From: Candidatus Aenigmatarchaeota archaeon
GTDB lineage: Archaea; Aenigmatarchaeota; Aenigmatarchaeia; Aenigmatarchaeales; DAIDAN01
NCBI GenBank assembly: GCA_049303335.1
Contig: JBAQNA010000022.1
Location: 1,135 to 65,134, forward strand
Direction: 5' to 3'
Length of the DNA stretch: 64,000 bases
Below are positions 37,234 to 55,972 of the stretch, piece by piece; position 1 is the stretch's first letter, and each line of letters starts with the position of its first letter. A program made the position numbers and the translations under genes. The notes under the pieces were generated by a model that was given only the letters and a program-made list of their open reading frames with translations, had not been told where the DNA came from and made no database searches.

Positions 37234-37554
37234 ATGAATCTTGACGAATTGAAAATCAGGCTGAAAGAGTATAAGCCAGAAGACATTATTTTTTCGCATC
37301 ATGCTGAAATCAGGCTGCTTCAAAGAAACATTCCGAGAAAGATTATGGAAGACAGCATAACAAATCCAGTAAACCTGATAGATTTTATAGAGGAAGAACC
37401 AGAAAGGCAGAAATACAGGCTTATATTTGAATTAAGCCATAACAGGAATCTCATAGTTGTTGCCGCGCTCGGCGCAAGAATAAGCGTCATAACCGCGCTA
37501 ATCAGGTATAGAAAATGGATGAGACCTATAAATTTAAAGGATAGAAAACAATAA
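37234..37554 (+). CDS. DUF4258-like small protein (putative toxin of a TA-like pair)
   Basis: 106 aa; pattern IIFSHHAEIRLLQRNI...; adjacent to a DUF2283-like gene. Confidence 0.4.
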   Translation: MNLDELKIRLKEYKPEDIIFSHHAEIRLLQRNIPRKIMEDSITNPVNLIDFIEEEPERQKYRLIFELSHNRNLIVVAALGARISVITALIRYRKWMRPINLKDRKQ

Positions 37555-37558
37555 GTTA

Positions 37559-37891
37559 ATGGTTAAAAATATGATAAAAGAAACTTATTTTGACTATGAC
37601 AGGGAGAACGATTCTTTGTTCATTTACAAGAAAGAGACTGTAAAGGGCAGCATTGATGTCGGGAATTATGTGGTGGACTTCACGCACGAGGGCAATGTCG
37701 CCGGAATAGAGATAATGAACGCCAGCGAGGTTATGAGAAACCTGAAAGTGGAAAATATCGAAAAGTTTCTGGAGAACATAAAACAGATCACAATCAAGTC
37801 GGTGCAGAAGCGCGATTCCGTTGTTATCTATTTTGCCATTTCTTCCGACACGCAGATAAGTTCGTCAATAGCGATTCCCGTTTGCAGATGA
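37559..37891 (+). CDS. DUF2283-like small protein (putative antitoxin partner)
   Basis: YFDYDRENDSLFIYKKE...GIEIMNAS resembles DUF2283; 4-nt spacing from the upstream gene. Confidence 0.4.
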   Translation: MVKNMIKETYFDYDRENDSLFIYKKETVKGSIDVGNYVVDFTHEGNVAGIEIMNASEVMRNLKVENIEKFLENIKQITIKSVQKRDSVVIYFAISSDTQISSSIAIPVCR

Positions 37892-37912
37892 AATTGAAAT
37901 ATTATTAAATTT

Positions 37913-38401
37913 ATGAAACTTTCCATCGAGCTTGTGCCGTCAACATCTTGGTATAACAATCTTCGGAAAGCCCTCCCGAAAGAGGAGTGGGACAGAATCA
38001 GGAAGAAGTGTTATGCCAACGCAGGCTTCAGGTGTGAGATTTGCGGAGCGAAAGGAATGTTGAACTGCCACGAAATATGGAAGTATGACGATGCGAATAA
38101 TATTCAGAAATTAGAAGGCTTTATCGCGCTCTGCGAATTATGTCACCATATCAAGCATATCGGGCTTTCCAATATTCTTGCTTCCGAGGGAAAGTTGGAC
38201 ATGAAAAGGGTTATCGCGCATTTCATGAAAGTGAACGGCTGCGACAGAGGGGCTTTTGAAGCGCACGAGAAAGAGGCGTTCGGCGAATGGGAAAAGCGTT
38301 CAGCGCACGACTGGAAAGTCGTGCTGGGAGAATATGAAGGAATGATAAGCGGGAAAGAAAATGAAAAAGAAAACAAAGATTCGCTGAAGAGATTTTTGTG
38401 A
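37913..38401 (+). CDS. HNH-like zinc-finger protein
   Basis: CEICGAKGMLNCHEIW...LCELCHHIKH is a CxxC...H...CxxCH arrangement like the HNH/His-Me finger. Confidence 0.4.
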   Translation: MKLSIELVPSTSWYNNLRKALPKEEWDRIRKKCYANAGFRCEICGAKGMLNCHEIWKYDDANNIQKLEGFIALCELCHHIKHIGLSNILASEGKLDMKRVIAHFMKVNGCDRGAFEAHEKEAFGEWEKRSAHDWKVVLGEYEGMISGKENEKENKDSLKRFL

Positions 38402-38469
38402 TTTTCATTTCACGGCTTCTTTATAGCAAAGCAGATATTTTTATAATCTAATATACAATATCATTAACT

Positions 38470-39105
38470 ATGAACAAAAAACATCTCTGGGTTTTGGCAA
38501 GGCTTATGATAATCGTCATACCTGTTATTCTTGCATTTTTCATTTTATTTAATCCCTATGAAAGGATACCTTTGTCTAGAGAAAAAATTTTAGAAAATGT
38601 TACAATGATTAAGGTATCAGAAGATGTAATATTTCAACCATCACTTAAAAATGCAATTCGTGGAGTTTTTGATGTTCCTTTTGATTTAAAATGGTATGAC
38701 ATTTGTTTTGTAAATAATGATACAAAAATAATTTTTGAGAATGGAGAGACGGATAAAAATGTAAGTGTTTCTCTTAATTTTAACTATAATCAAACAATTC
38801 TTATCATTCCTTATGGAGAAACCAAATGTATACTTTACAAGTTTAATAAAGATTTTACATATTATTGGAGATTTGAAGCTCCTATTAATTTTACTAGAAT
38901 AGCAGAAACTTCAAAAGAAGAGCGTATTTACATAAACGAAACCCATTATCTTAAACGAAAAGGGACATGGTCTTTGCATCCTGATGTTGATTCATATGCA
39001 AAACCTGAGATGAGTAGTATAATTGTTAAAAATATTTTATTTTTCTTCGCATGGTTTAGTTTTTATAATGATAGAAATTATAAATTTTGTAAGATTTGGA
39101 ATTAA
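38470..39105 (+). CDS. hypothetical membrane-anchored protein (low-GC island)
   Basis: N-terminal TM helix, Asn/Lys-rich; GC visibly lower than the neighbours. Confidence 0.35.
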   Translation: MNKKHLWVLARLMIIVIPVILAFFILFNPYERIPLSREKILENVTMIKVSEDVIFQPSLKNAIRGVFDVPFDLKWYDICFVNNDTKIIFENGETDKNVSVSLNFNYNQTILIIPYGETKCILYKFNKDFTYYWRFEAPINFTRIAETSKEERIYINETHYLKRKGTWSLHPDVDSYAKPEMSSIIVKNILFFFAWFSFYNDRNYKFCKIWN

Positions 39106-39133
39106 TAAGAAGAAATAAGAATTATATATTTGA

Positions 39134-40651
39134 TTGTTTATTATTCATATTATGAATAATAAATTTTATAAGGATTTAGATAAAGTAAACGAAGAGATGA
39201 TAAAGTTTCTTAACAGCTATTCAAAGTCAAATATCCTTCAGAAGTTTTATATTTCAAGTTTTAAATCATTTTTTTATGGAAATTTGATAAATGCTTTTTT
39301 TACCAATTTGAATGCAGAAAATATTGAGGAACTTCAATTGCCGAAAGACAAAGTTTTGGAAATTAAAAAGAAATACAGAAACGTAATAAAACAAATTAAA
39401 TTAGCAACATCTTTAAAATTAAACAAAATAGATGAAAAATATTACAATGCATTCAAAAATCAGATAAAAAAGGATTTTCCAGTATTTGTAAAATTAATTG
39501 ATAGAATCGAGAGAAGCATTAACATAAATAAAGCGAAAAATTTCTTAAAGAAAAAAGAGAAAAAGATTAAAAAATCAGGAAACTCCAATAGTGATATTAA
39601 TTCTTTTTTTATAATCAAATCTTTAGAAGCATGTATTAAAAAGGAAAGAGGTCTTCCAAACATAAATAAAATAGACAGAATAATGAGAGTTTTTATCAAA
39701 AAACTTTTGCCTAAATTCTCCAAAGCAGTAGTGAAAAATCTAAAAAAGAACAGTAAAGAAATGTTAAATTCACAGAGAACTTATCAAGGTGGATTTGAAT
39801 ATAAACTTTATGTTCGGTGGAAGGAATCAATTGATTTACTAGAATGTTTAATCAGAATCTCAATGGAATCTGGAGAAGAACATAGAAACAAAATATCTAA
39901 ATCAAATGATAAAACAAATGATTATAAAAGAGTAGCTTTAATAAAAATTCATGCGAGAGCTGTTCATATTGCAAATGAAATTCTTATATTATTAAAATCC
40001 GGATATCCTGATGGCGCCAATGCGAGATGGCGAACACTTCATGAGTTGGCAGTAATTTCTTTTTTCTTATCTGCTAATAATAGCGAAGTGTCGCAAAGGT
40101 ATCTTGAACATGAAATGATAAAGAAATTCAAAGAGGCAAAAGATTATAGAAATTATTATAAAAAATTAGGGTTTCCTTCATTTGGGAGAAAAGATTTTAA
40201 TAGATTGAAGAAAGAGAAAGAAAAATTATGTAATAAATATAACGATAAATTTCAAGGAGAATACGGATGGATTCCGAGTAAAATATTGTCAGACAGAAAT
40301 TTTAGAACATTAGAGAAGCATGTAAGATTAGATAGGCTTCATCCATTTTATAATCTTTCCAATGATGCTGTCCATGGTGGTCCTAAAGGATTCTATCGTT
40401 TAGGGCTTATGAATGCATGGCAAGATAAATTACATTTAGTTGGTGCAAGCAATTATGGTCTTGCATTACCCATTCAAAATACTGTGATTTCTCTGTTGCA
40501 CGTAACTGTCTGTTTGCTTGGTTTAGAACCAGATTTCGAGAGTCTTATGCAAATGCAAATCATATGTATTTATGTCGATGAAATATGTCCCATTGCAGCT
40601 AAAATTCAAAAACAAATAGAGAAAGAAGAAGCTTCTAAGATTTCACCATAA
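39134..40651 (+). CDS. hypothetical 505-aa protein with possible HEPN-like Rx4H motif (Abi-like candidate)
   Basis: Very Lys-rich N-terminal half. The C-terminal half has ANARWRTLHELAVISFF (R-x4-H). Low-GC gene. Confidence 0.4.
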   Translation: MFIIHIMNNKFYKDLDKVNEEMIKFLNSYSKSNILQKFYISSFKSFFYGNLINAFFTNLNAENIEELQLPKDKVLEIKKKYRNVIKQIKLATSLKLNKIDEKYYNAFKNQIKKDFPVFVKLIDRIERSININKAKNFLKKKEKKIKKSGNSNSDINSFFIIKSLEACIKKERGLPNINKIDRIMRVFIKKLLPKFSKAVVKNLKKNSKEMLNSQRTYQGGFEYKLYVRWKESIDLLECLIRISMESGEEHRNKISKSNDKTNDYKRVALIKIHARAVHIANEILILLKSGYPDGANARWRTLHELAVISFFLSANNSEVSQRYLEHEMIKKFKEAKDYRNYYKKLGFPSFGRKDFNRLKKEKEKLCNKYNDKFQGEYGWIPSKILSDRNFRTLEKHVRLDRLHPFYNLSNDAVHGGPKGFYRLGLMNAWQDKLHLVGASNYGLALPIQNTVISLLHVTVCLLGLEPDFESLMQMQIICIYVDEICPIAAKIQKQIEKEEASKISP

Positions 40652-40700
40652 AAAATAAATTAAAAGATTTTATTGATACCTTTTCATAGAAATTCTTTTC

Positions 40701-47871: not shown

Positions 47872-47911
47872 AAAGCGGGCGATAATATGTAAATAATAAG
47901 GGTGATAAAAA

Positions 47912-48088
47912 ATGGCAAAGGTTGATGTAGGTTTGTATGTTGTTATGGCTATTCTTGGTATAGGATTTATTTTATCACTTCAAGAAACATTGAAAAATCC
48001 TACACAGATAAACTTGTATATTACGGCAGGAACGTTTGTTGGTACAGCAATTCTTGTAGCTATTGCAATAATAAAAGGTAAAAGATAA
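47912..48088 (+). CDS. small membrane protein (58 aa)
   Basis: MAKVDVGLYVVMAILGIGFILSL...; two TM helices; below the ORF-track cut-off. Confidence 0.25.
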   Translation: MAKVDVGLYVVMAILGIGFILSLQETLKNPTQINLYITAGTFVGTAILVAIAIIKGKR

Positions 48089-48128
48089 TCAACCTCAAGA
48101 AACACTGAAGAGCCACAGAATTGTTTTT

Positions 48129-49358
48129 TCACTCGGCTTTTCCTTCCAAAAGCTCTTCAACCGTCCTTAAAATGATTTCCAAACCGTCCTGATTTTTCAC
48201 TCTCGCAACTTCTTCGCGAGCGCCTTTTCCAAAAGAATATGCTGCGATATATCCCTTCTTCTTTTTTATCCTTCGCATCGCGGTCTCGAAATTATCCACA
48301 ACATTCCTCCCCACGCCTTCGCTTTGCTTGACTTGAATCGGATAGCCTCCTAAAAGCTGCGGCGTAAAGCCGTCTATTCCCATATCCCCGCTTTTCTTGT
48401 CGCTTACCCTGCCTAAAAATTTGCCTGCTACAACCCAGTTCTGGAACTCGAAAGGCGGAAGGCGTTTTACATAATTCAAATCAACATTTCCTCTTATCAG
48501 GTTTGCATCCATATTACATTCTCTCTGCAATCTTTTTTTGATTAGTTTGCAGGCTGTGGGACTTATGTCTATGCCAATCCATTTTCTTCCAAATTTTTGC
48601 GCTGAAATTATTGTAGTTCCGCAGCCGCAGAACGGGTCTAAAACAATATCGCCATCGTTGCTTGCCGCTTTGATAATTCTCTCAAGAAGCGTTAGCGGTT
48701 TTTGAGTAGGGTAGCCTGTTCTCTCTCTTGCCGCAGGATTTATTGCCTGAATGTCCGTCCACCAATCATTAGGCAGAGTCCCTTTGTCCAAATAGTAGCG
48801 ATATTCTTTTCCGAGCTTGATATTTCTCTGATATTGCCTGCCTTTTTCATCGGTAAGAATTGTTTCATGCATTGTGGAAGGGTCTCTTGGCAGAGCAACA
48901 GCATTATAATAAAAATTATATTTTTCCGTTTTGGAATACCAAAAAATAGTGTCATGTTTCTTTGGAAAAAAACCGGTTGCCCTTCCGCCTGTTTCATAAC
49001 ACCAAATTATCTCATTTACAAGATTATTATTGAATATTTTATCCAACAAAATCCGAAGGTGCGCGTTAGCGTGCCAGTCACAGTGCAAAAATAATGAGCC
49101 TGTTTTTTTCAATATTCTATGGCATTCCCTCAAGCGCGGCTCCATCCATGAGATATAATGCTCAACCCCGCCTTTCCATCTGTCCTGAAAAGCGCGAATC
49201 TCTGCGCCATCTTTCCATATCACTTCATATTGTCTATTTGAGAAAAACGGAGGGTCCGCGTAAATCAGGTCTATGCTTTCGTCGGGAAACTTGCTCATAA
49301 TTTCCAGATTATCGCCTTCGTAAATGCTGTTTATTTCCATAAAATCACTGCAAAACAA
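48129..49358 (-). CDS. DNA methyltransferase (beta-class N6A/N4C, DPPF motif) fused to a C-terminal Mrr-like PD-(D/E)xK nuclease domain
   Basis: Motif IV IYADPPFF is followed by motif I DPFCGCGTT (beta-class order). The C-terminus GDMGIDGF...IQVKQSEG fits Mrr_cat D...(D/E)xK. Confidence 0.7.
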   Translation of the reverse strand: MFCSDFMEINSIYEGDNLEIMSKFPDESIDLIYADPPFFSNRQYEVIWKDGAEIRAFQDRWKGGVEHYISWMEPRLRECHRILKKTGSLFLHCDWHANAHLRILLDKIFNNNLVNEIIWCYETGGRATGFFPKKHDTIFWYSKTEKYNFYYNAVALPRDPSTMHETILTDEKGRQYQRNIKLGKEYRYYLDKGTLPNDWWTDIQAINPAARERTGYPTQKPLTLLERIIKAASNDGDIVLDPFCGCGTTIISAQKFGRKWIGIDISPTACKLIKKRLQRECNMDANLIRGNVDLNYVKRLPPFEFQNWVVAGKFLGRVSDKKSGDMGIDGFTPQLLGGYPIQVKQSEGVGRNVVDNFETAMRRIKKKKGYIAAYSFGKGAREEVARVKNQDGLEIILRTVEELLEGKAE

Positions 49359-49466
49359 TTAATAATACCTATTTAATATAGCTGATGCTGGTTTAAATAT
49401 TTTTAAGACTGCCTGCTGAAAATCAGAAACGCAGTTGTTTTTAAGTTTTAAAATCATATTATTCTT

Positions 49467-50807
49467 ATGTTCAAGTTCCAGATTCTCAAGTATTACTCGC
49501 AGCCGTTCGTCCAGCAAAAAATATCCGAGTTCTCGAAAGGGCGCGAAGTTGTCGGCAGGCTGGAGGACGACCGCTATGCGCGGCGCCCCGACGTGATTCT
49601 TTATCCGCGCGACGTTTCCGAAAAGGTGAAGCAGGGCGCGGTAAGCTTCCACTGCTCGGTCGAGCGGTGGCACAACCCCATGCAGCTTTCCTCCGAGATG
49701 CGCGAGCCGGAAATGCGCGAGCTGCGCAGCGGCTGGGATTTCATAATCGACATCGACGCGAAGGCGAAGCTGGAGCACGCGAGGATTGCGGCGCAATCAG
49801 TCATTTCTTTTCTGAAGGATTTTGGAATAACACCAACGATAAAGTTCTCGGGAAGGCGCGGTTTTCATATCGGAGTGTCCGGCGAAGCGTTCCCGAAAAA
49901 AATGGATTTCTTGGAAGTGTCAAAATCCTATCCGGAGGCTCCGCGCGCGATGGCCGGCTTTATCAGGGAAAAGATTTCCGACAGGCTTATGGATTCCTTG
50001 GTAGGAATGGAGGGCGGCGTTGCCGCGCTGATGAAGACCGCGGACGCAAAGACGCTCTCGCCTTACGAGTTCATTGACATAGAAAAGGAATGGGGAAACC
50101 GCCACCTCTTCAGGATGCCGTATTCGCTGCACGAGAAGACCTGGCTCGCTTCGGTGCCGCTTTCGGAAAAACAGCTGAAAACTTTCGAGCCCTCGCAGGC
50201 AAAGCCGGAGAGCATAAAAAAATTCGACTCCGTATTCTTGAAAAACAAGGAAGGTGAAGCATCCGAGCTTCTGATGCAGGCGCTCGAATGGCAGTCAAAA
50301 ACGGTTCAGCCTGCATTGGTTCAGAAAAATGACAGGAAGCATTCCGAAATAAAGGCCGAGATTCCGGAGCAGTTTTTCCCGCCCTGCGTAAAAAATATTC
50401 TGGCGGGAATAGGCGACGGGAGGAAGCGCTCCGTTTTCACGCTGTCCGCGTTCCTGAAATACATGAACTGGACGCCGGAGCACATCGAGAAACGCGTGGA
50501 GGAATGGAACGGAAAAAACCCGTCTTCGATAAGCAACGCGACCATAAGGAGCCAGCTCAAGTGGCACCTGCGCCAGAACAGAAAAATATTCCCCGCGAAC
50601 TGCGACAGCGATTTGTTCTACAAGTCCATAGGCGTGTGCAATCCGGACAACACGTGCCATGGACTGAAGAACCCGATTAATTACGCGTTCCGAATGTATA
50701 GAAAACAGTTCAAGACAGCCGACATCGCGATAAAGAAGGACAGGAAAGTATTAAGGAGAGTCAGAAAGAAAAAAGAAGATAAAACTAATCAAATAACCCA
50801 GTCTTGA
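49467..50807 (+). CDS. fused DNA primase PriS-PriL (small catalytic subunit plus large-subunit Fe-S domain in one polypeptide)
   Basis: AEP motifs WDFIIDIDAK and KFSGRRGFHIG, with RMPYSLHEKT. The C-terminal domain carries the PriL-CTD motif FFPPCVKNIL...RKRSVFTLSAFL and downstream Cys residues CDSD...C...C. Confidence 0.7.
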   Translation: MFKFQILKYYSQPFVQQKISEFSKGREVVGRLEDDRYARRPDVILYPRDVSEKVKQGAVSFHCSVERWHNPMQLSSEMREPEMRELRSGWDFIIDIDAKAKLEHARIAAQSVISFLKDFGITPTIKFSGRRGFHIGVSGEAFPKKMDFLEVSKSYPEAPRAMAGFIREKISDRLMDSLVGMEGGVAALMKTADAKTLSPYEFIDIEKEWGNRHLFRMPYSLHEKTWLASVPLSEKQLKTFEPSQAKPESIKKFDSVFLKNKEGEASELLMQALEWQSKTVQPALVQKNDRKHSEIKAEIPEQFFPPCVKNILAGIGDGRKRSVFTLSAFLKYMNWTPEHIEKRVEEWNGKNPSSISNATIRSQLKWHLRQNRKIFPANCDSDLFYKSIGVCNPDNTCHGLKNPINYAFRMYRKQFKTADIAIKKDRKVLRRVRKKKEDKTNQITQS

Positions 50808-51024: not shown

Positions 51025-51105
51025 TATAAACTTATCGCTTTCCGCGGCTTTGCTCCTAAACTCGGTTCTGCTCCTAATGTCGGAGTTTTGCTCCTAAAGT
51101 CGTTA
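51025..51105. repeat. triple tandem approximately 18-bp repeat (ttGCTCCTAAAnTCGG) preceded by the 16-mer CGCTTTCCGCGGCTTT; left boundary of the RM/IS island
   Basis: Reads ctttgctcctaaactcgg / ttctgctcctaatgtcgg / agttttgctcctaaagtcg. The 16-mer cgctttccgcggcttt recurs at about 57015. Confidence 0.5.
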
Positions 51106-51396
51106 GAGTTTTAATTTCGCTGGGTCAATACCAGCTTCCCTCATTCTTTTCAGTATTGCTTCTCTATCTATCGGCTTACCTTCTTTAAGCCGCTTTCTTA
51201 TTTCCTCTTTTGTTTTGTGGCAATTAGGGCAATCTTCCAGAACTTCATAGACTTCTTTTGATGTGTGATAGCCGCGAACCGCACCCATTGTTGCGGTGCG
51301 TGTTGTTTTCGTTGATATGACAGATGGCTTATGCCTAACCTTGATTTTAGCCTTCTCACAAAATGGGCAATCCATTAACAGTTCTTGTTCTAACAT
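51103..51396 (-). CDS. zinc-ribbon protein (CPFC ... CPNC)
   Basis: 97 aa; two CxxC pairs; basic residues. It is the first gene inside the island. Confidence 0.4.
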   Translation of the reverse strand: MLEQELLMDCPFCEKAKIKVRHKPSVISTKTTRTATMGAVRGYHTSKEVYEVLEDCPNCHKTKEEIRKRLKEGKPIDREAILKRMREAGIDPAKLKL

Positions 51397-51443: not shown

Positions 51444-52385
51444 TTAGATATTTGAACTATAAGATAAGGATTTTATATAATCTTCCATAAATTTCCAGTC
51501 AGGGTCTCCTTTTTTATCTATAGGTAATTCTATTTCATCAAAATCTAATCTTTGCAGTCTTACTTGTCTACCAAAATTATATTTATATTGCAGTTCTTTT
51601 AGAATTGTTGCTAAAAATAAGCAAATATACTTATTGAGAGAAAGACTTTTTGGAATTAAAGTATGAACATTATCATCACTAAAATATTCATAATTATGAT
51701 AGAATACATTAAAAAACATATCAATTGTTAATTTATCTCTGAAAATCTTTTTACTGTCTTTAAATTCATCATAAGAAATATAATCAACAACCCCGTTATT
51801 TTCAGACGTTGCAGTAATTAGTGGGATTTTACCTTCTATTCTTTCTTCTTTTACCAATCTTTCACCTTTTTTAATGTTAAATAAATCAACAATCTTAAAA
51901 TTTTTCCAAGTTTTAACATTTAATTCAATTTTCTTAGAGATAATCGGTTCTTTTTTCAATTCATTGATTTTTAATGAATATATCCAAGAAGGAATTTTTT
52001 CTTTAGATGGAATTTCTAAATCTTTTAGTGTTTTATTAGCTTGTCTTCCATAAGAATATTTCCATGCATTTTGTTTTAAACACATACAATAATACCATAA
52101 TTCGCGTTCATTTAATTTTATTTTTGGTGTTAAGTATACTATATGAAACCCGCTATAATACGGTTCTTTTTGTAAAAAACTCGCCATCACAGAACCACCA
52201 CAAGAAACCGAAATAGTATTTGCAGGATTTGGCGTAATCCCTTCAATTAATTTGACTTTGCCAACAACACCATTATTTTTTTCAGTTCGGGCTACAAATG
52301 GAATACCATTAGAATCTTCTTCCATATTGGAAAATTCTAAATTAACACCATATTTTAAATTAAAATAGTCTTTTACTTTGACCAT
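51444..52385 (-). CDS. restriction-modification specificity subunit (HsdS/BcgIB-like, two short TRDs)
   Basis: Two repeated TRD-like halves (YFNLKYGVNLEF...IPFVARTEKNNGVVGKV and WKNFKIVDLFNIKKGERL...IPLITATSENNGVVDYI). 1-nt spacing to the upstream gene. Low GC. Confidence 0.65.
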   Translation of the reverse strand: MVKVKDYFNLKYGVNLEFSNMEEDSNGIPFVARTEKNNGVVGKVKLIEGITPNPANTISVSCGGSVMASFLQKEPYYSGFHIVYLTPKIKLNERELWYYCMCLKQNAWKYSYGRQANKTLKDLEIPSKEKIPSWIYSLKINELKKEPIISKKIELNVKTWKNFKIVDLFNIKKGERLVKEERIEGKIPLITATSENNGVVDYISYDEFKDSKKIFRDKLTIDMFFNVFYHNYEYFSDDNVHTLIPKSLSLNKYICLFLATILKELQYKYNFGRQVRLQRLDFDEIELPIDKKGDPDWKFMEDYIKSLSYSSNI

Positions 52386-54404
52386 TTAATCACCCGTATT
52401 TAAAAATTTAAAAGCAACAAAATCTTTTAATGTTTTCTCAAAATCTTTTTCATTTAATTTAGAATAATCTGTTTCCATATATGCTTCAACACACCATTCA
52501 TCATTGGCGGTTACATATTTCTTAACACTAAACCCTTCAATTTCTTCTTTATTTCTATAATTTTCTAACCAATATTTTTTTATTTCATTCCATTTATTTT
52601 TATAATCATCTCTTCCAGATTTTCTTTTTATAAATCCGTCATCTTTCCAATAACCAAAATAAGTCTTATAATTTGTTGGATGTTTTTCTTTTGCCTTAAA
52701 TACCATAATACAAGTATTAACCCCAACATTAGAGTTATGAAACAACTCTGTTGGCATAGAAAAAACGGCTTCCAGAGTATTTTCTCTTAACAATTTTTCT
52801 TTAAGTTCCAAACCGGTACCGCTTTGAGCTAAAGCACAGCTCATAGGAACAATAGCAATACATAAAGAACCCTTTTCAAGTAAATATAAATTATTTAATA
52901 CAAATTCTAACTCTTCTGGGTCAGTTTTAGTTGATTTGTATGGAGGATTAAGAAAGCCCGTATTAGGTTTAAATGTTTTTATTTTGTTAATTGTTTTTTC
53001 ATTGAAACATGAACCTTTAATCAAGTTACTTCTCCCATCTCCGTGAATAAACATATTAGAACATACCAAAGCAAAAATATCATGCTGAAACTCAACACCA
53101 ATTATTTGTTTATGTTTTATAATTTCTTCTTTCTTTGTATCTCCTGCGGCGTCCTCAATCATTTTTCTCATAGCACTTATCAGGAAACCCCCAGTTCCAC
53201 AGCAAGTATCTAAAACCACACTATCTTTATTTATATTGGCTATCTCCGAAAATAATTCGGTGATGTGTGGAGGAGTTAAAACAATTCCTAAACCCTTATC
53301 ATTATTAGCATATCTTAAAAATTCTATATAAAATTGTCCAAGAGTATCAAAATATTGATATGTTTTATTAAAATTATTTATCCTCAAATCTACTTCGGTT
53401 ATAATATCTCTTAATTCATTTTCTTCTTTTGAAAGTATTGTATGAGTTTTTATGAAACTGTATGTAGTTATAATATCAACTATATGTTCGTTTTGAACGT
53501 TTGTTAATTTATTTTTTATAGTATTGACAAGGCTTTCAGATAATTCTTTTGGTTTCTGAAATTTATAAGAATTACAAAAAGCTTTATCTTGTAATGCTAT
53601 AAGTATTCCGCTAATTAACAAACTCCTATTAGCTTCTGGAACTTTTATGGCGTGAAGTTTATCATTTAATATTTTTGAATATCTTAACAGTTCTTGAAAA
53701 TCTTGATTAAACTTCTTCTCATCTGATTTGTAGCCATTTATATAATCATACAAGGAAAAAAGTTTATCTTCTTTAAATATAGTATTTGCTTCTTTAACTC
53801 CTTTCAGTTGTAAAAAATGAGAAATTCTTATATTAGATTTTTCTTCTCCACTAATTGCTATAGACAAAACATCATACTCTTTAGAAAGAAAAGAAGAATA
53901 TAATAAAGCTCCATCAACAGCATAATCTTTATATTTATCTCCTTCTTTAGATTTATGATATTTTGTATTAGCTTTACATTCAACAACTATTATAAAATCT
54001 GGAATTTCTTTAAATTGAATTATAAATTCTGGGTAACCCTTCCCATTTCCACTTTTTGAAGCATTTTTTAATAATTTATCAATCTTTATATTTTTAGTGG
54101 CTTGTTCTTCAAATATTATGCTGTTAAACATCCCATCATTCTTAAAATGAGTTCTTACAAAGTCTTCAGTAATTCTTTCGTTTCTCATTTTTTCCCCCTC
54201 TTTAGATACTCTTCTATTGAGATTTGTATGACTTTCGACCTGTCTGTTGGGGCTGGTTTTGTTTGAGAACAATATTCGTCTAATTCTTTTAGAACTTGTT
54301 TGCTTATAGAAATAGTTGCCCTTGCCTTTACAACTTCTTTTTTCATGTAATAATTGAGAAGATTGTGACTTATAATCTTTAGTATGATTAGTATTACTTC
54401 TCAT
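52386..54404 (-). CDS. Type IIB/IIG restriction-modification enzyme A subunit (N-terminal PD-(D/E)xK nuclease plus gamma-class N6-adenine methyltransferase, BcgIA-like)
   Basis: Motif IV FLNPPYKS (NPPY) and motif I LDTCCGTGGFLISA. The N-terminus has PDFIIVVECK, a nuclease (E)xK-like pattern. Together with the 313-aa S subunit this matches BcgI A/B architecture. Confidence 0.7.
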   Translation of the reverse strand: MRSNTNHTKDYKSQSSQLLHEKRSCKGKGNYFYKQTSSKRIRRILFSNKTSPNRQVESHTNLNRRVSKEGEKMRNERITEDFVRTHFKNDGMFNSIIFEEQATKNIKIDKLLKNASKSGNGKGYPEFIIQFKEIPDFIIVVECKANTKYHKSKEGDKYKDYAVDGALLYSSFLSKEYDVLSIAISGEEKSNIRISHFLQLKGVKEANTIFKEDKLFSLYDYINGYKSDEKKFNQDFQELLRYSKILNDKLHAIKVPEANRSLLISGILIALQDKAFCNSYKFQKPKELSESLVNTIKNKLTNVQNEHIVDIITTYSFIKTHTILSKEENELRDIITEVDLRINNFNKTYQYFDTLGQFYIEFLRYANNDKGLGIVLTPPHITELFSEIANINKDSVVLDTCCGTGGFLISAMRKMIEDAAGDTKKEEIIKHKQIIGVEFQHDIFALVCSNMFIHGDGRSNLIKGSCFNEKTINKIKTFKPNTGFLNPPYKSTKTDPEELEFVLNNLYLLEKGSLCIAIVPMSCALAQSGTGLELKEKLLRENTLEAVFSMPTELFHNSNVGVNTCIMVFKAKEKHPTNYKTYFGYWKDDGFIKRKSGRDDYKNKWNEIKKYWLENYRNKEEIEGFSVKKYVTANDEWCVEAYMETDYSKLNEKDFEKTLKDFVAFKFLNTGD

Positions 54405-54760: not shown

Positions 54761-55972
54761 ATGCAAAACCAAAATTCAGCTAACATGACAAGAGAGCAGA
54801 AAGGATTAGAGATAGCAAAAACTTCCCAAATAACAAAGAATGAAAAGGGATATTGGAAAGTGCCAAGCCAGTCGGGGCATGGCTACTATCTTGTGAATCT
54901 TAACAAGCATGAGCCAGAATGTTCTTGCCCAGACTGCGAATTAAGAAAGCTGAAATGCAAGCACATTTTCGCGGTAGAATTTTATCTGAAAAGGGAAATT
55001 GACAGCACGGGCAACATGACAGAAACAAAGGCAGTAAAGATAACTTATTCGCAGAATTGGGAAGCATACAACAAAGCACAAACAAGCGAGTTAAGGCTCT
55101 TTGATGTTCTGCTTAAAGACTTGGTTAATGATGTGGAAGAGCCAAAACAGCACATGGGAAGAAAGAGATTAGACATTAAGGATACCATGTTTTGCGCAAT
55201 ACAAAAAGTCTATTCCCAGCTTTCAAGCAGAAGGGCATACTCGCTTTATGCAAACGCAAAAGAAAAGGAAAAGATAAAGAACGCTCCGAATTTCAACGCA
55301 ATAAACAAGTTCCTTAACCGCGAGGATATAACGCCGATACTACACAATTTGCTGACATTAACGGCTTTGCCTCTAAAAAGCGTGGAAACGACTTTTGCCC
55401 CAGACAGTTCTGGTTTCAGAACCACACAATTTAACGAATACTGCAAAGAAAAGCATGGCACGGACAAATATCATATATGGGTAAAGGCGCATATCCTTGT
55501 CGGGACTAAAACAAATATCGTGGCGAGTGCAAGAATAACCGAAGGGGAAAGTGCTGATTGTCCGCAGTTCGCACCTATGGTTAATGAAGCCCATGACAAC
55601 GGCTTTGAGATAAAAGAGATAACAGCGGACAAGGCTTATTCAAGCCGTGATAACTACTCTTTGGCTCAAAGCATAGGAGCAACCGCCTTTATCCCTTTTA
55701 AATCAAACGCTACGGGAAAATCAAGAGGCTCTATGATTTGGGGGCAGATGTATCACTACTTCATGTATAGGCATGATGAGTTTATGCAACACTACCACCA
55801 GCGAAGTAATGTAGAAAGTGCCTTCAACATGATTAAGGCGAAATTCGGCGACAAGTTAAGAAGCAAAAATTATGTGGCACAACAAAATGAACTTTTATGC
55901 AAACTGATAGCCCACAATATCGTTGTGCTGATACATGAGATACACGAACTCGGGATAAAGCCCGAGTTCTGA
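54761..55972 (+). mobile_element. IS4/IS5-like DDE transposase with N-terminal SWIM zinc finger (IS element ORF)
   Basis: SWIM CSCPDCELRKLKCKHIFAV. DDE region ...ADKAYSSRDN... and the C-terminal YHQRSNVESAFNMIKAKFG (conserved E) are typical of DDE_Tnp_1. TA-rich imperfect repeats lie upstream at 54400-54760. Confidence 0.7.

Follow-up and report, generated by a model that had tools for sequence, protein, structure and literature searches.

Introduction

Among the described systems, the Type IIG/IIC enzymes such as MmeI, BpuSI and Eco57I place nuclease and methyltransferase (MTase) in one polypeptide encoded by a solitary gene, combine a conserved scaffold with a variable recognition element, and have a mobile and patchy distribution. 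These traits recur, in a different layout, in a gene at positions 48129..49340 (-) of a 64,000-nucleotide (nt) stretch of a Candidatus Aenigmatarchaeota genome (GenBank assembly GCA_049303335.1, contig JBAQNA010000022.1), the whole of which we call the window. Its 403-amino acid (aa) product, here MTase-Mrr, consists of a beta-class MTase followed by a C-terminal PD-(D/E)xK domain of the Mrr type. We tentatively favour reading it as a candidate restriction-modification (R-M) enzyme that is solitary, mobile and single-chain, with a non-canonical layout, and would place this reading just short of evenly balanced.

BpuSI and MmeI carry their nuclease at the N-terminus and their recognition domain at the C-terminus. 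The MTases of REBASE-annotated Type IIG enzymes are reported all to belong to class A, the beta class being class B (preprint 10.1101/2023.12.13.571470). For the nuclease part the reference is the work of Smith et al., who defined the Mrr motifs I-III and found by mutagenesis that D74, D78 and K94 of LlaGI are critical, and that mutating the Glu of motif I or the Gln of motif III causes partial defects only, E38A staying partly active (PMC2790908).

Domain organisation of MTase-Mrr

Read from the TTG at 49358, the open reading frame (ORF) at 48129..49358 (-) encodes 409 aa. The ATG at 49340 is most likely the true start, giving the 403-aa protein whose residue numbering we use throughout, since the nearest homologues are 403-404 aa long, the family alignment starts at that Met, and a TATA-like box, TATATTAAAT, lies 31-40 nt upstream (49371..49380, -); the stop codon occupies 48129-48131. 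The box sits in the divergent intergenic region common to the MTase-Mrr and primase genes and, as read from the letters, is a putative promoter of the former.

The MTase occupies residues 1-275. It covers the entire PF01555 (N6_N4_Mtase) profile in Pfam (1-221/221; E=6.8e-54, 183.6 bits against a cutoff of 26.7), and the best solved relatives, M.RsrI (1eg2, E=1.3e-27), CcrM (1.3e-26) and MboIIA, match this part alone. The permuted order of the beta class is present: an N-terminal catalytic half, delimited by the PF01555 match and the M.RsrI alignment (residues 1-112; 49005..49340, -), holds motif IV, DPPF (residues 29-32; 49245-49256, -); a central hypervariable region (residues 113-203; 48732..49004, -) takes the position of the beta-class target-recognition domain (TRD) and is only loosely similar to that of M.RsrI; and the half that binds S-adenosylmethionine (AdoMet) follows (residues 204-275; 48516..48731, -), carrying motif X and then motif I, DPFCGCGTT (residues 235-243; 48612-48638, -). 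These motifs are intact in the window protein and conserved in its relatives. The modified base is probably N6-adenine, to judge from the Asp of DPPF and from the closest named families, which are adenine-specific. PADLOC and NCBIfam recognise the protein as an MTase alone, the PADLOC models being of the MTase_II, MTase_III or orphan-MTase kind (25 best of 87 matched models).

Beyond a linker of lower conservation (0.47; residues 276-293, 48462..48515, -), with low model confidence around residues 294-298, lies the Mrr/FokI-type PD-(D/E)xK domain (residues 294-403; 48132..48461, -). It matches PF04471 (Mrr_cat) at 24.0 bits against a cutoff of 21 (E=4.6e-5, Pfam), and relatives score 26-45 bits against the same family; on the same stretch of the window protein PF22722 (NA-iREase1) is sub-threshold, with 14.2 bits against 27. 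The domain has a restriction-endonuclease-like alpha/beta core, and its closest folds are active cleavage modules, with FokI, MspJI and AspBHI among the structural neighbours. An hhalign comparison to E. coli Mrr (E=3.2e-4) covers Mrr residues 112-261 alone, which are its C-terminal catalytic part, and sets F299-Q300 (motif I; 48441-48446, -) opposite F171-E172, D319 and D323 (motif II, D319-M-G-I-D323; 48372-48386, -) opposite D199 and D203, and Q336 and K338 (motif III, Q336-V-K338; 48327-48335, -) opposite Q219 and K221. D319, D323 and K338 are also the counterparts of LlaGI D74, D78 and K94. On this alignment, motifs II and III are intact and the sole deviation is the Gln of motif I, with E298 standing two residues upstream of it.

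The preliminary description had paired a beta-class MTase with an Mrr-type PD-(D/E)xK region, and the ORF coordinates and all of the motifs that it quoted (GDMGIDGF, residues 318-325, and IQVKQ, residues 335-339, in the nuclease-like part) are present, as are the Pfam domains, which speaks against motifs matching by chance. It had named a non-nuclease fold, or loss of the D/E/K triad, as grounds for giving the idea up; that check was run, and found a nuclease fold and an intact D...QxK.

It had also stated that Mrr-type nucleases normally cut modified DNA, and had offered a methylation-dependent system with self-protection as one option. The generalisation does not transfer to this protein, as LlaGI, an R-M enzyme, uses the same motifs (PMC2790908). 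In its full form the option describes a Type IV-like nuclease acting on modified foreign DNA, with the MTase in a self-protective or marking role. The name of the Pfam family and its founding member, the methyl-directed E. coli Mrr, point that way, as do the structural neighbours MspJI and AspBHI, which are modification-dependent. From the architectures of Type IV enzymes, however, we would suppose that modification dependence sits in a separate reader domain: E. coli Mrr has a winged-helix domain as its reader. In MspJI an SRA-like domain is found at the N-terminus (PMC12707154). No reader domain for modified bases was detected in the Pfam scan of the whole of MTase-Mrr, which returned PF01555, overlapping generic methyltransferase-fold families and then Mrr_cat directly; what follows the MTase is a bare catalytic module. 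The same catalytic module works in LlaGI independently of modification, and in FokI, which is not known to depend on it. If the MTase is active, coupling it to a nuclease that attacks the DNA it has methylated would be self-destructive; its motifs are intact and conserved. With no reader detected, and with LlaGI using the same Mrr motifs in R-M, we consider a methylation-dependent nuclease very improbable.

A widespread family with a swappable central region

The preliminary description regarded the fusion as a less common architecture; it is found in hundreds of clusters, in Bacteria, Archaea, a plasmid and phages. Among the best 8,000 candidates of a homologue search, the top ones are full-length homologues (99% coverage, 55-76% identity), most with both Pfam domains, and to judge from the names of their sources they come from DPANN archaea. 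Scanning a single genome for each species yielded at least 585 relatives, and the locus, neighbour and motif counts given below rest on the best 80 of these. The 80 include Chloroflexota, Actinomycetota, Alphaproteobacteria, Patescibacteria, Planctomycetota, Verrucomicrobiota and Cyanobacteria, as well as Bathyarchaeia, ANME-1, Methanoperedens and others, and all ten of the bacterial, phage and plasmid members that were scanned have PF01555 followed by PF04471 and/or PF22722. Cultured strains with a homologue include Actinoplanes subtropicus NRRL B-24665 (L018, frameshifted), Actinomadura sp. BRA 177 (L009), Allosphingosinicella vermicomposti KCTC 22446 (L042), Nostocoides veronense JCM 15592 (L072), Sphingomonas adhaesiva DSM 7418 (L048) and Mesorhizobium japonicum MAFF 303099, the last on pMLa.

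Searched with its own profile, the C-terminal module appears in 1,161 clusters at 50% identity with E<=1e-3 (615 with E<=1e-10, a lower bound), and in almost all cases the protein ends with it. When ten of the longer representatives were examined, seven were MTase fusions and three had other N-termini. The latter (P0388, P0379 and P0428) bear the module, at E values of ~1e-36 to 1e-45, on non-MTase N-termini of 400-500 aa, one of them with HEAT repeats. Possibly these N-termini are other targeting heads for the same predicted cutter; their existence is as expected of a portable effector domain.

Within the module, the following positions are conserved: F299 is present in 80/80 members, Q or E at position 300 in 80/80, D319 in 79/80, G321 in 78/80, D323 and G324 in 80/80 each, and K338 in 79/80, the D/D/K set being conserved across members just ~30-56% identical to the window protein. 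Position 300 is Q in 46 and E in 34 of the 80, and position 336 is Q in 50, S in 26 and E in two.

The central region behaves quite differently from the rest. A 22-sequence alignment gives the N-terminal catalytic half a mean pairwise identity of 0.75 and the AdoMet half one of 0.71; the Mrr-like domain, at 0.73, is conserved to the same degree, whereas residues 113-203, a region whose length ranges from 85 to 153 aa, reach only 0.26. The region is also mosaic: P0095 is 69% identical to the window protein in the central region and only 48% in the Mrr domain, whereas P0014 is 86% identical in the Mrr domain and only 37% in the central region. As read from these alignments, the family keeps its scaffold constant and swaps a specificity cassette within it. 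Such reassortment of the specificity element on a conserved scaffold would be expected of R-M enzymes, the families of MmeI, Type I S and Type III Mod being examples.

How might such a protein work? We envisage that the MTase part, with its exchangeable central recognition region, would locate the DNA site and, probably acting as a dimer like RsrI, MboIIA and CcrM, would methylate the host's own sites using AdoMet. A flexible linker would tether the C-terminal module, a predicted non-specific cutter of the Mrr/FokI type, and on incoming DNA that lacks the modification, two bound molecules could bring their nuclease modules together and cut near the site, as in FokI, MspJI and Type IIG enzymes. 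More tentatively still, the family as a whole may be an unrecognised class of one-polypeptide R-M enzymes built on a beta-class MTase that targets a C-terminal FokI/Mrr-type cutter, found widely among Archaea (DPANN above all) and Bacteria as well as on plasmids and in temperate phages, and diversifying by swaps of the recognition region.

A solitary and mobile gene

All-against-all clustering of ORFs in the 80 loci revealed no conserved neighbour or partner gene, be it a restriction endonuclease (REase), a helicase or a controller; the clusters that do recur are shadow ORFs within the gene itself or unrelated common families. As no neighbour is conserved in these loci, we regard the gene as solitary. 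Close DPANN homologues stand in unrelated neighbourhoods, one next to a transposase of the IS240 type, a second close to genes for Csa3 and HNH, and another adjoining a Dam-like MTase, a MORC-like ATPase, a transposase and SocA; close homologues thus adjoin transposases, toxin-antitoxin genes or other defence-type genes. A full-length relative is carried on a Candidatus Megaera plasmid, and others lie close to the integrase genes of temperate actinophages, such as gp37 of Mycobacterium phage Amgine (L084, 3001-4632) and gp48 of Streptomyces phage SarahRose (L085, 2977-4623), both with a C-terminal domain that matches PF22722 better than PF04471. In mycobacteriophages, the integrase-proximal region often holds prophage-expressed defence genes.

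Short "Mrr-only" proteins also occur among the relatives, and we considered whether they could be a natural two-gene form with split modification and restriction functions, which would have spoken for a restriction role. This was rejected, as they are frameshifted or truncated copies: frameshifts fall at ~residue 316 in L018 (8001-9349), ~residue 252 in L066 (8001-9237) and ~residue 240 in L082 (4204-5387), L081 (4956-5381) holds a truncated remnant of the last ~145 residues (256-399), and L083, near a contig end, is a further probable truncated remnant. The pieces of interrupted homologues are listed in databases as separate "restriction endonuclease" and "methyltransferase" proteins. Decay by frameshift or truncation is expected for selfish or defence genes.

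A cutter, or an accessory of the methyltransferase?

Several observations weigh against an R-M enzyme. The single-chain layout on a beta-class MTase would be without precedent among REBASE-annotated Type IIG enzymes, and the REase_MTase_IIG model is absent among the 25 best of the 87 PADLOC models that MTase-Mrr matches. Motif I has Gln (Q300) where Mrr and LlaGI have Glu, so the canonical Phe-Glu pair is missing, and at motif III S-x-K replaces Q-x-K in 26/80 members. In several relatives PF22722, the "NACHT-associated inactive REase 1" family, outscores Mrr_cat. The conservation of D/D/K would also fit a metal- or DNA-binding role that involves no cleavage, and phage-borne copies could just be self-protecting MTases. 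The full-length AlphaFold2 model (mean predicted local distance difference test score, pLDDT, of 75; below 50 at residues 309-331 and low around 294-298) offers no reliable interdomain geometry for the predicted cutter. A literature search, with REBASE outside it, found no characterised MTase-Mrr_cat fusion, and found no biochemical or genetic data on any family member.

Could the protein be a solitary MTase, then, serving protective or epigenetic methylation, with the Mrr-like domain as a non-cutting accessory for DNA binding, clamping or dimerisation? The best parallel is the beta-class CcrM, whose activity depends on a C-terminal domain that binds DNA non-specifically (PMC6787082). The departures from the canonical motifs noted above, with Gln for Glu at motif I and Ser at motif III in a third of the family, sit well with such a role, as do the good matches of relatives to a Pfam family named for inactivity and the view of PADLOC and NCBIfam, which see an MTase alone. 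The same is true of the phage homologues, given that stand-alone protective MTases are common in phages. Retention of the Mrr-like domain is near-universal, with few MTase-only derivatives among the 80 loci, and this fits a domain required for methylation.

Nevertheless, we consider an accessory role somewhat less likely than an R-M enzyme, of which it is the main rival. The D, D and K that are critical in LlaGI are conserved at 99-100% over deep divergence, which DNA binding would not obviously demand; the closest folds are active cleavage modules; and the module also occurs on non-MTase N-termini. The likeness to CcrM is one of function only: we considered its C-terminal domain as a homologue of the Mrr-like domain and rejected this, as it is SAND/PWWP-like in fold (PMC6787082). 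A hypervariable, swapped region and a mobile, patchy spread resemble those of defence genes, although anti-restriction MTases of phages or plasmids could match this pattern too. As for motif I, the partial activity kept by LlaGI E38A suggests by analogy that a Gln there weakens the predicted catalysis of the R-M enzyme that we favour, and would not exclude it.

An exchanged cassette in the slot between PCNA and primase

In the window, the MTase-Mrr gene stands between PCNA and primase genes as an insertion of ~1.4-1.6 kb with low GC, in a region whose genes include SMC, ABCE1, PCNA, a small+large primase that may be fused, arginyl-tRNA synthetase (ArgRS) and EF-2. Homologues of the PCNA point to a DPANN archaeon as the source of the window, those with names being mostly Aenigmarchaeota, plus two Nanoarchaeota. 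Three related loci frame its history. The order ABCE1, PCNA, MTase-Mrr, primase, ArgRS is the same in L092 (PCNA 90% identical) as in the window, and in L093 (PCNA 81%) and L094 (63%) PCNA is followed by primase, with no MTase between them. From gene maps and an identity profile, the segment at 47873..49457 is present in the window and L092 and absent from L093 and L094, homology to L093 ending at 47872 and restarting at 49458. The PCNA-primase slot (window 47872-49467), which holds the MTase-Mrr cassette in the window and L092, has an unrelated 87-aa ORF in L093 (6744-7056) and ~60-75 nt in L094 (6750-6814).

A block of high identity shared with L092 (48078-49457) comprises the gene and its putative promoter. 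Between the window and L092, the MTase-Mrr gene is 95.6% identical, with a synonymous divergence (dS) of 0.19 and a non-synonymous to synonymous ratio (dN/dS) of 0.054, whereas the flanking genes are 80-83% identical at the nucleotide level, with dS of 1.0-1.2. The Mrr part has six synonymous differences and no non-synonymous ones. GC is 42% in the gene against 52-55% in its neighbours. Taken together, the dS values, the identity block, the GC and the empty sister sites lead us to conclude that the gene is an accessory cassette, exchanged well after the window and L092 lineages split and held under purifying selection.

Two smaller features of the slot deserve mention. A patch at 48558-48737 (residues ~201-261) is 82-87% identical to L092 in a cassette otherwise 95-100% identical, and holds most of the amino-acid differences; this pattern of identity suggests that the gene is itself a recombination mosaic. 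A hydrophobic 58-aa ORF (47912-48088, +) in the interval from PCNA to the MTase gene is not conserved in L092, where there is an indel of ~86 nt; probably it is no real gene, or else it lies outside the cassette.

Solitary, transferred recently and subject to strong purifying selection, the cassette also looks as a selfish addiction or abortive-infection module would. In such a module the nuclease would keep quiet for as long as methylation persists and would hit the host chromosome upon gene loss or once methylation is prevented, for example through a viral inhibitor or depletion of AdoMet. The frameshifted copies, which truncate both functions together, agree with this, and such a module overlaps with the R-M enzyme that we favour, differing in its selective benefit only. 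The sequence offers nothing that would tell it from ordinary restriction, however, and fusion in cis hinders the differential stability of restriction and modification activities that is the classical basis of post-segregational killing. We hold an addiction module to be improbable.

Other features of the window

The preliminary description placed the gene in a region peppered with defence genes. One such island, of a Type IIG enzyme with its specificity subunit, does lie ~2 kb away together with an insertion sequence (IS), and the surroundings are otherwise mostly housekeeping genes. Directly beyond the slot is the primase (49467-50807, +), a single 446-aa protein that matches the small-subunit family PF01896 (E=4.1e-9) and falls just under the cutoff of 22.4 bits for PF04104, the family of the large subunit (21.8 bits, E=1.3e-4), and which by these matches may be a fused PriS-PriL. 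Next comes a 97-aa Cys-rich protein (51103-51396, -) with a weak, sub-threshold match to Lar, a restriction-alleviation protein (PF14354, E=8.9e-4, 19.9 bits against a cutoff of 28.6). It stands beside the island (51444-54404, -, with 54761-55972, +), a canonical Type IIG R-M enzyme with a separate specificity subunit in a BcgI-like arrangement. The enzyme (52386-54404, 672 aa) is of the gamma type (N6_Mtase), matches PADLOC REase_MTase_IIG (E=7.8e-158) and has an N-terminal PD-ExK motif, ...PDFIIVVECK...; the specificity subunit (313 aa) matches Specificity_II (E=2.6e-37). GC in the island is 26-28%, and a DDE_Tnp_1/SWIM transposase comes next. In L092 and L093 the primase is followed by just a small ORF and then ArgRS; as the island is missing there, we regard it as a second, independent insertion.

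Another low-GC island (~28-29%; 37500-40700) lies between the ScpA and SMC genes and contains small ORFs that match no family, together with a 505-aa DUF5677 protein (39134-40651, +). No PADLOC match falls within it.

Significance and comparison with known systems

If the nuclease is active, these compact proteins of ~400 aa would constitute a new architectural class of single-chain R-M enzymes. They would form a large collection of small enzymes, diversified in nature, in which an exchangeable cassette of ~90-150 aa determines specificity, and this makes them interesting both as reagents for restriction or nicking and in annotating methylomes. Gene counting would change as well: defence models and annotation now score these proteins as MTases alone, and R-M capacity would be under-called in small DPANN genomes. 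The architecture is widespread and visible by Pfam, but if functional it would be a class of compact R-M enzymes that has gone unrecognised. If the domain does not cut, a nuclease fold would instead have been recruited as an obligatory MTase accessory. In both cases the locus records how two DPANN genomes that had diverged exchanged a cassette, cleanly and datably, at one fixed slot between genes.

Where, then, does MTase-Mrr fit among the known systems? Its residues 1-277 find their closest relatives in the Type III Mod and M.RsrI/CcrM-type MTases, with which it shares the beta-class motif order and a central variable region. However, RsrI has no nuclease-like C-terminal domain and that of CcrM is SAND-like, and a Type III Mod needs a separate Res. 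A res gene is absent at the locus, where the neighbours are PCNA and primase, and in the 80 loci; because no Res gene is present, MTase-Mrr is not a Type III Mod. Its catalytic domain is homologous to that of E. coli Mrr, and motifs II and III of the two line up, but it differs in having no detected N-terminal reader, in the Gln of motif I, and in its fusion to an active-looking MTase. The Type ISP enzymes LlaGI and LlaBIII are much larger, at ~1,500 aa (the LlaBIII chain has 1,517), and contain a superfamily 2 (SF2) helicase-like motor and a TRD, both absent from MTase-Mrr. Their nuclease is N-terminal and their MTase of the gamma class, neither of which applies to MTase-Mrr. Two proteins that might be taken for relatives proved unrelated: gp28 of mycobacteriophage Panchino, a prophage single-subunit restriction protein described as having fused Type I-like R, M and S domains, and Haloferax HVO_A0006, a "methyltransferase-related PD-(D/E)XK protein" that is a fragment of a classical Type IIG enzyme.

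FokI and BspD6I (Type IIS) and MspJI and AspBHI (Type IIM/IV) show a sequence identity of only 11-18%, and their reading modules are not MTases: FokI has DNA-binding domains, and MspJI an SRA-like reader of modified bases. A possible Type IIG enzyme was the other option in the preliminary description. The underlying idea, of restriction and modification in one polypeptide, is the best supported, but the protein stands outside the recognised Type IIG families: it is beta-class, with an internal recognition region and a C-terminal nuclease, and it has no PADLOC IIG match among the 25 best of 87 models, whereas the neighbouring enzyme at 52386-54404, which served as a positive control, matches strongly. 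By analogy with all of these, MTase-Mrr would in its working come closest to a Type IIG enzyme, or else to a FokI-type enzyme that has an MTase as its reading head.

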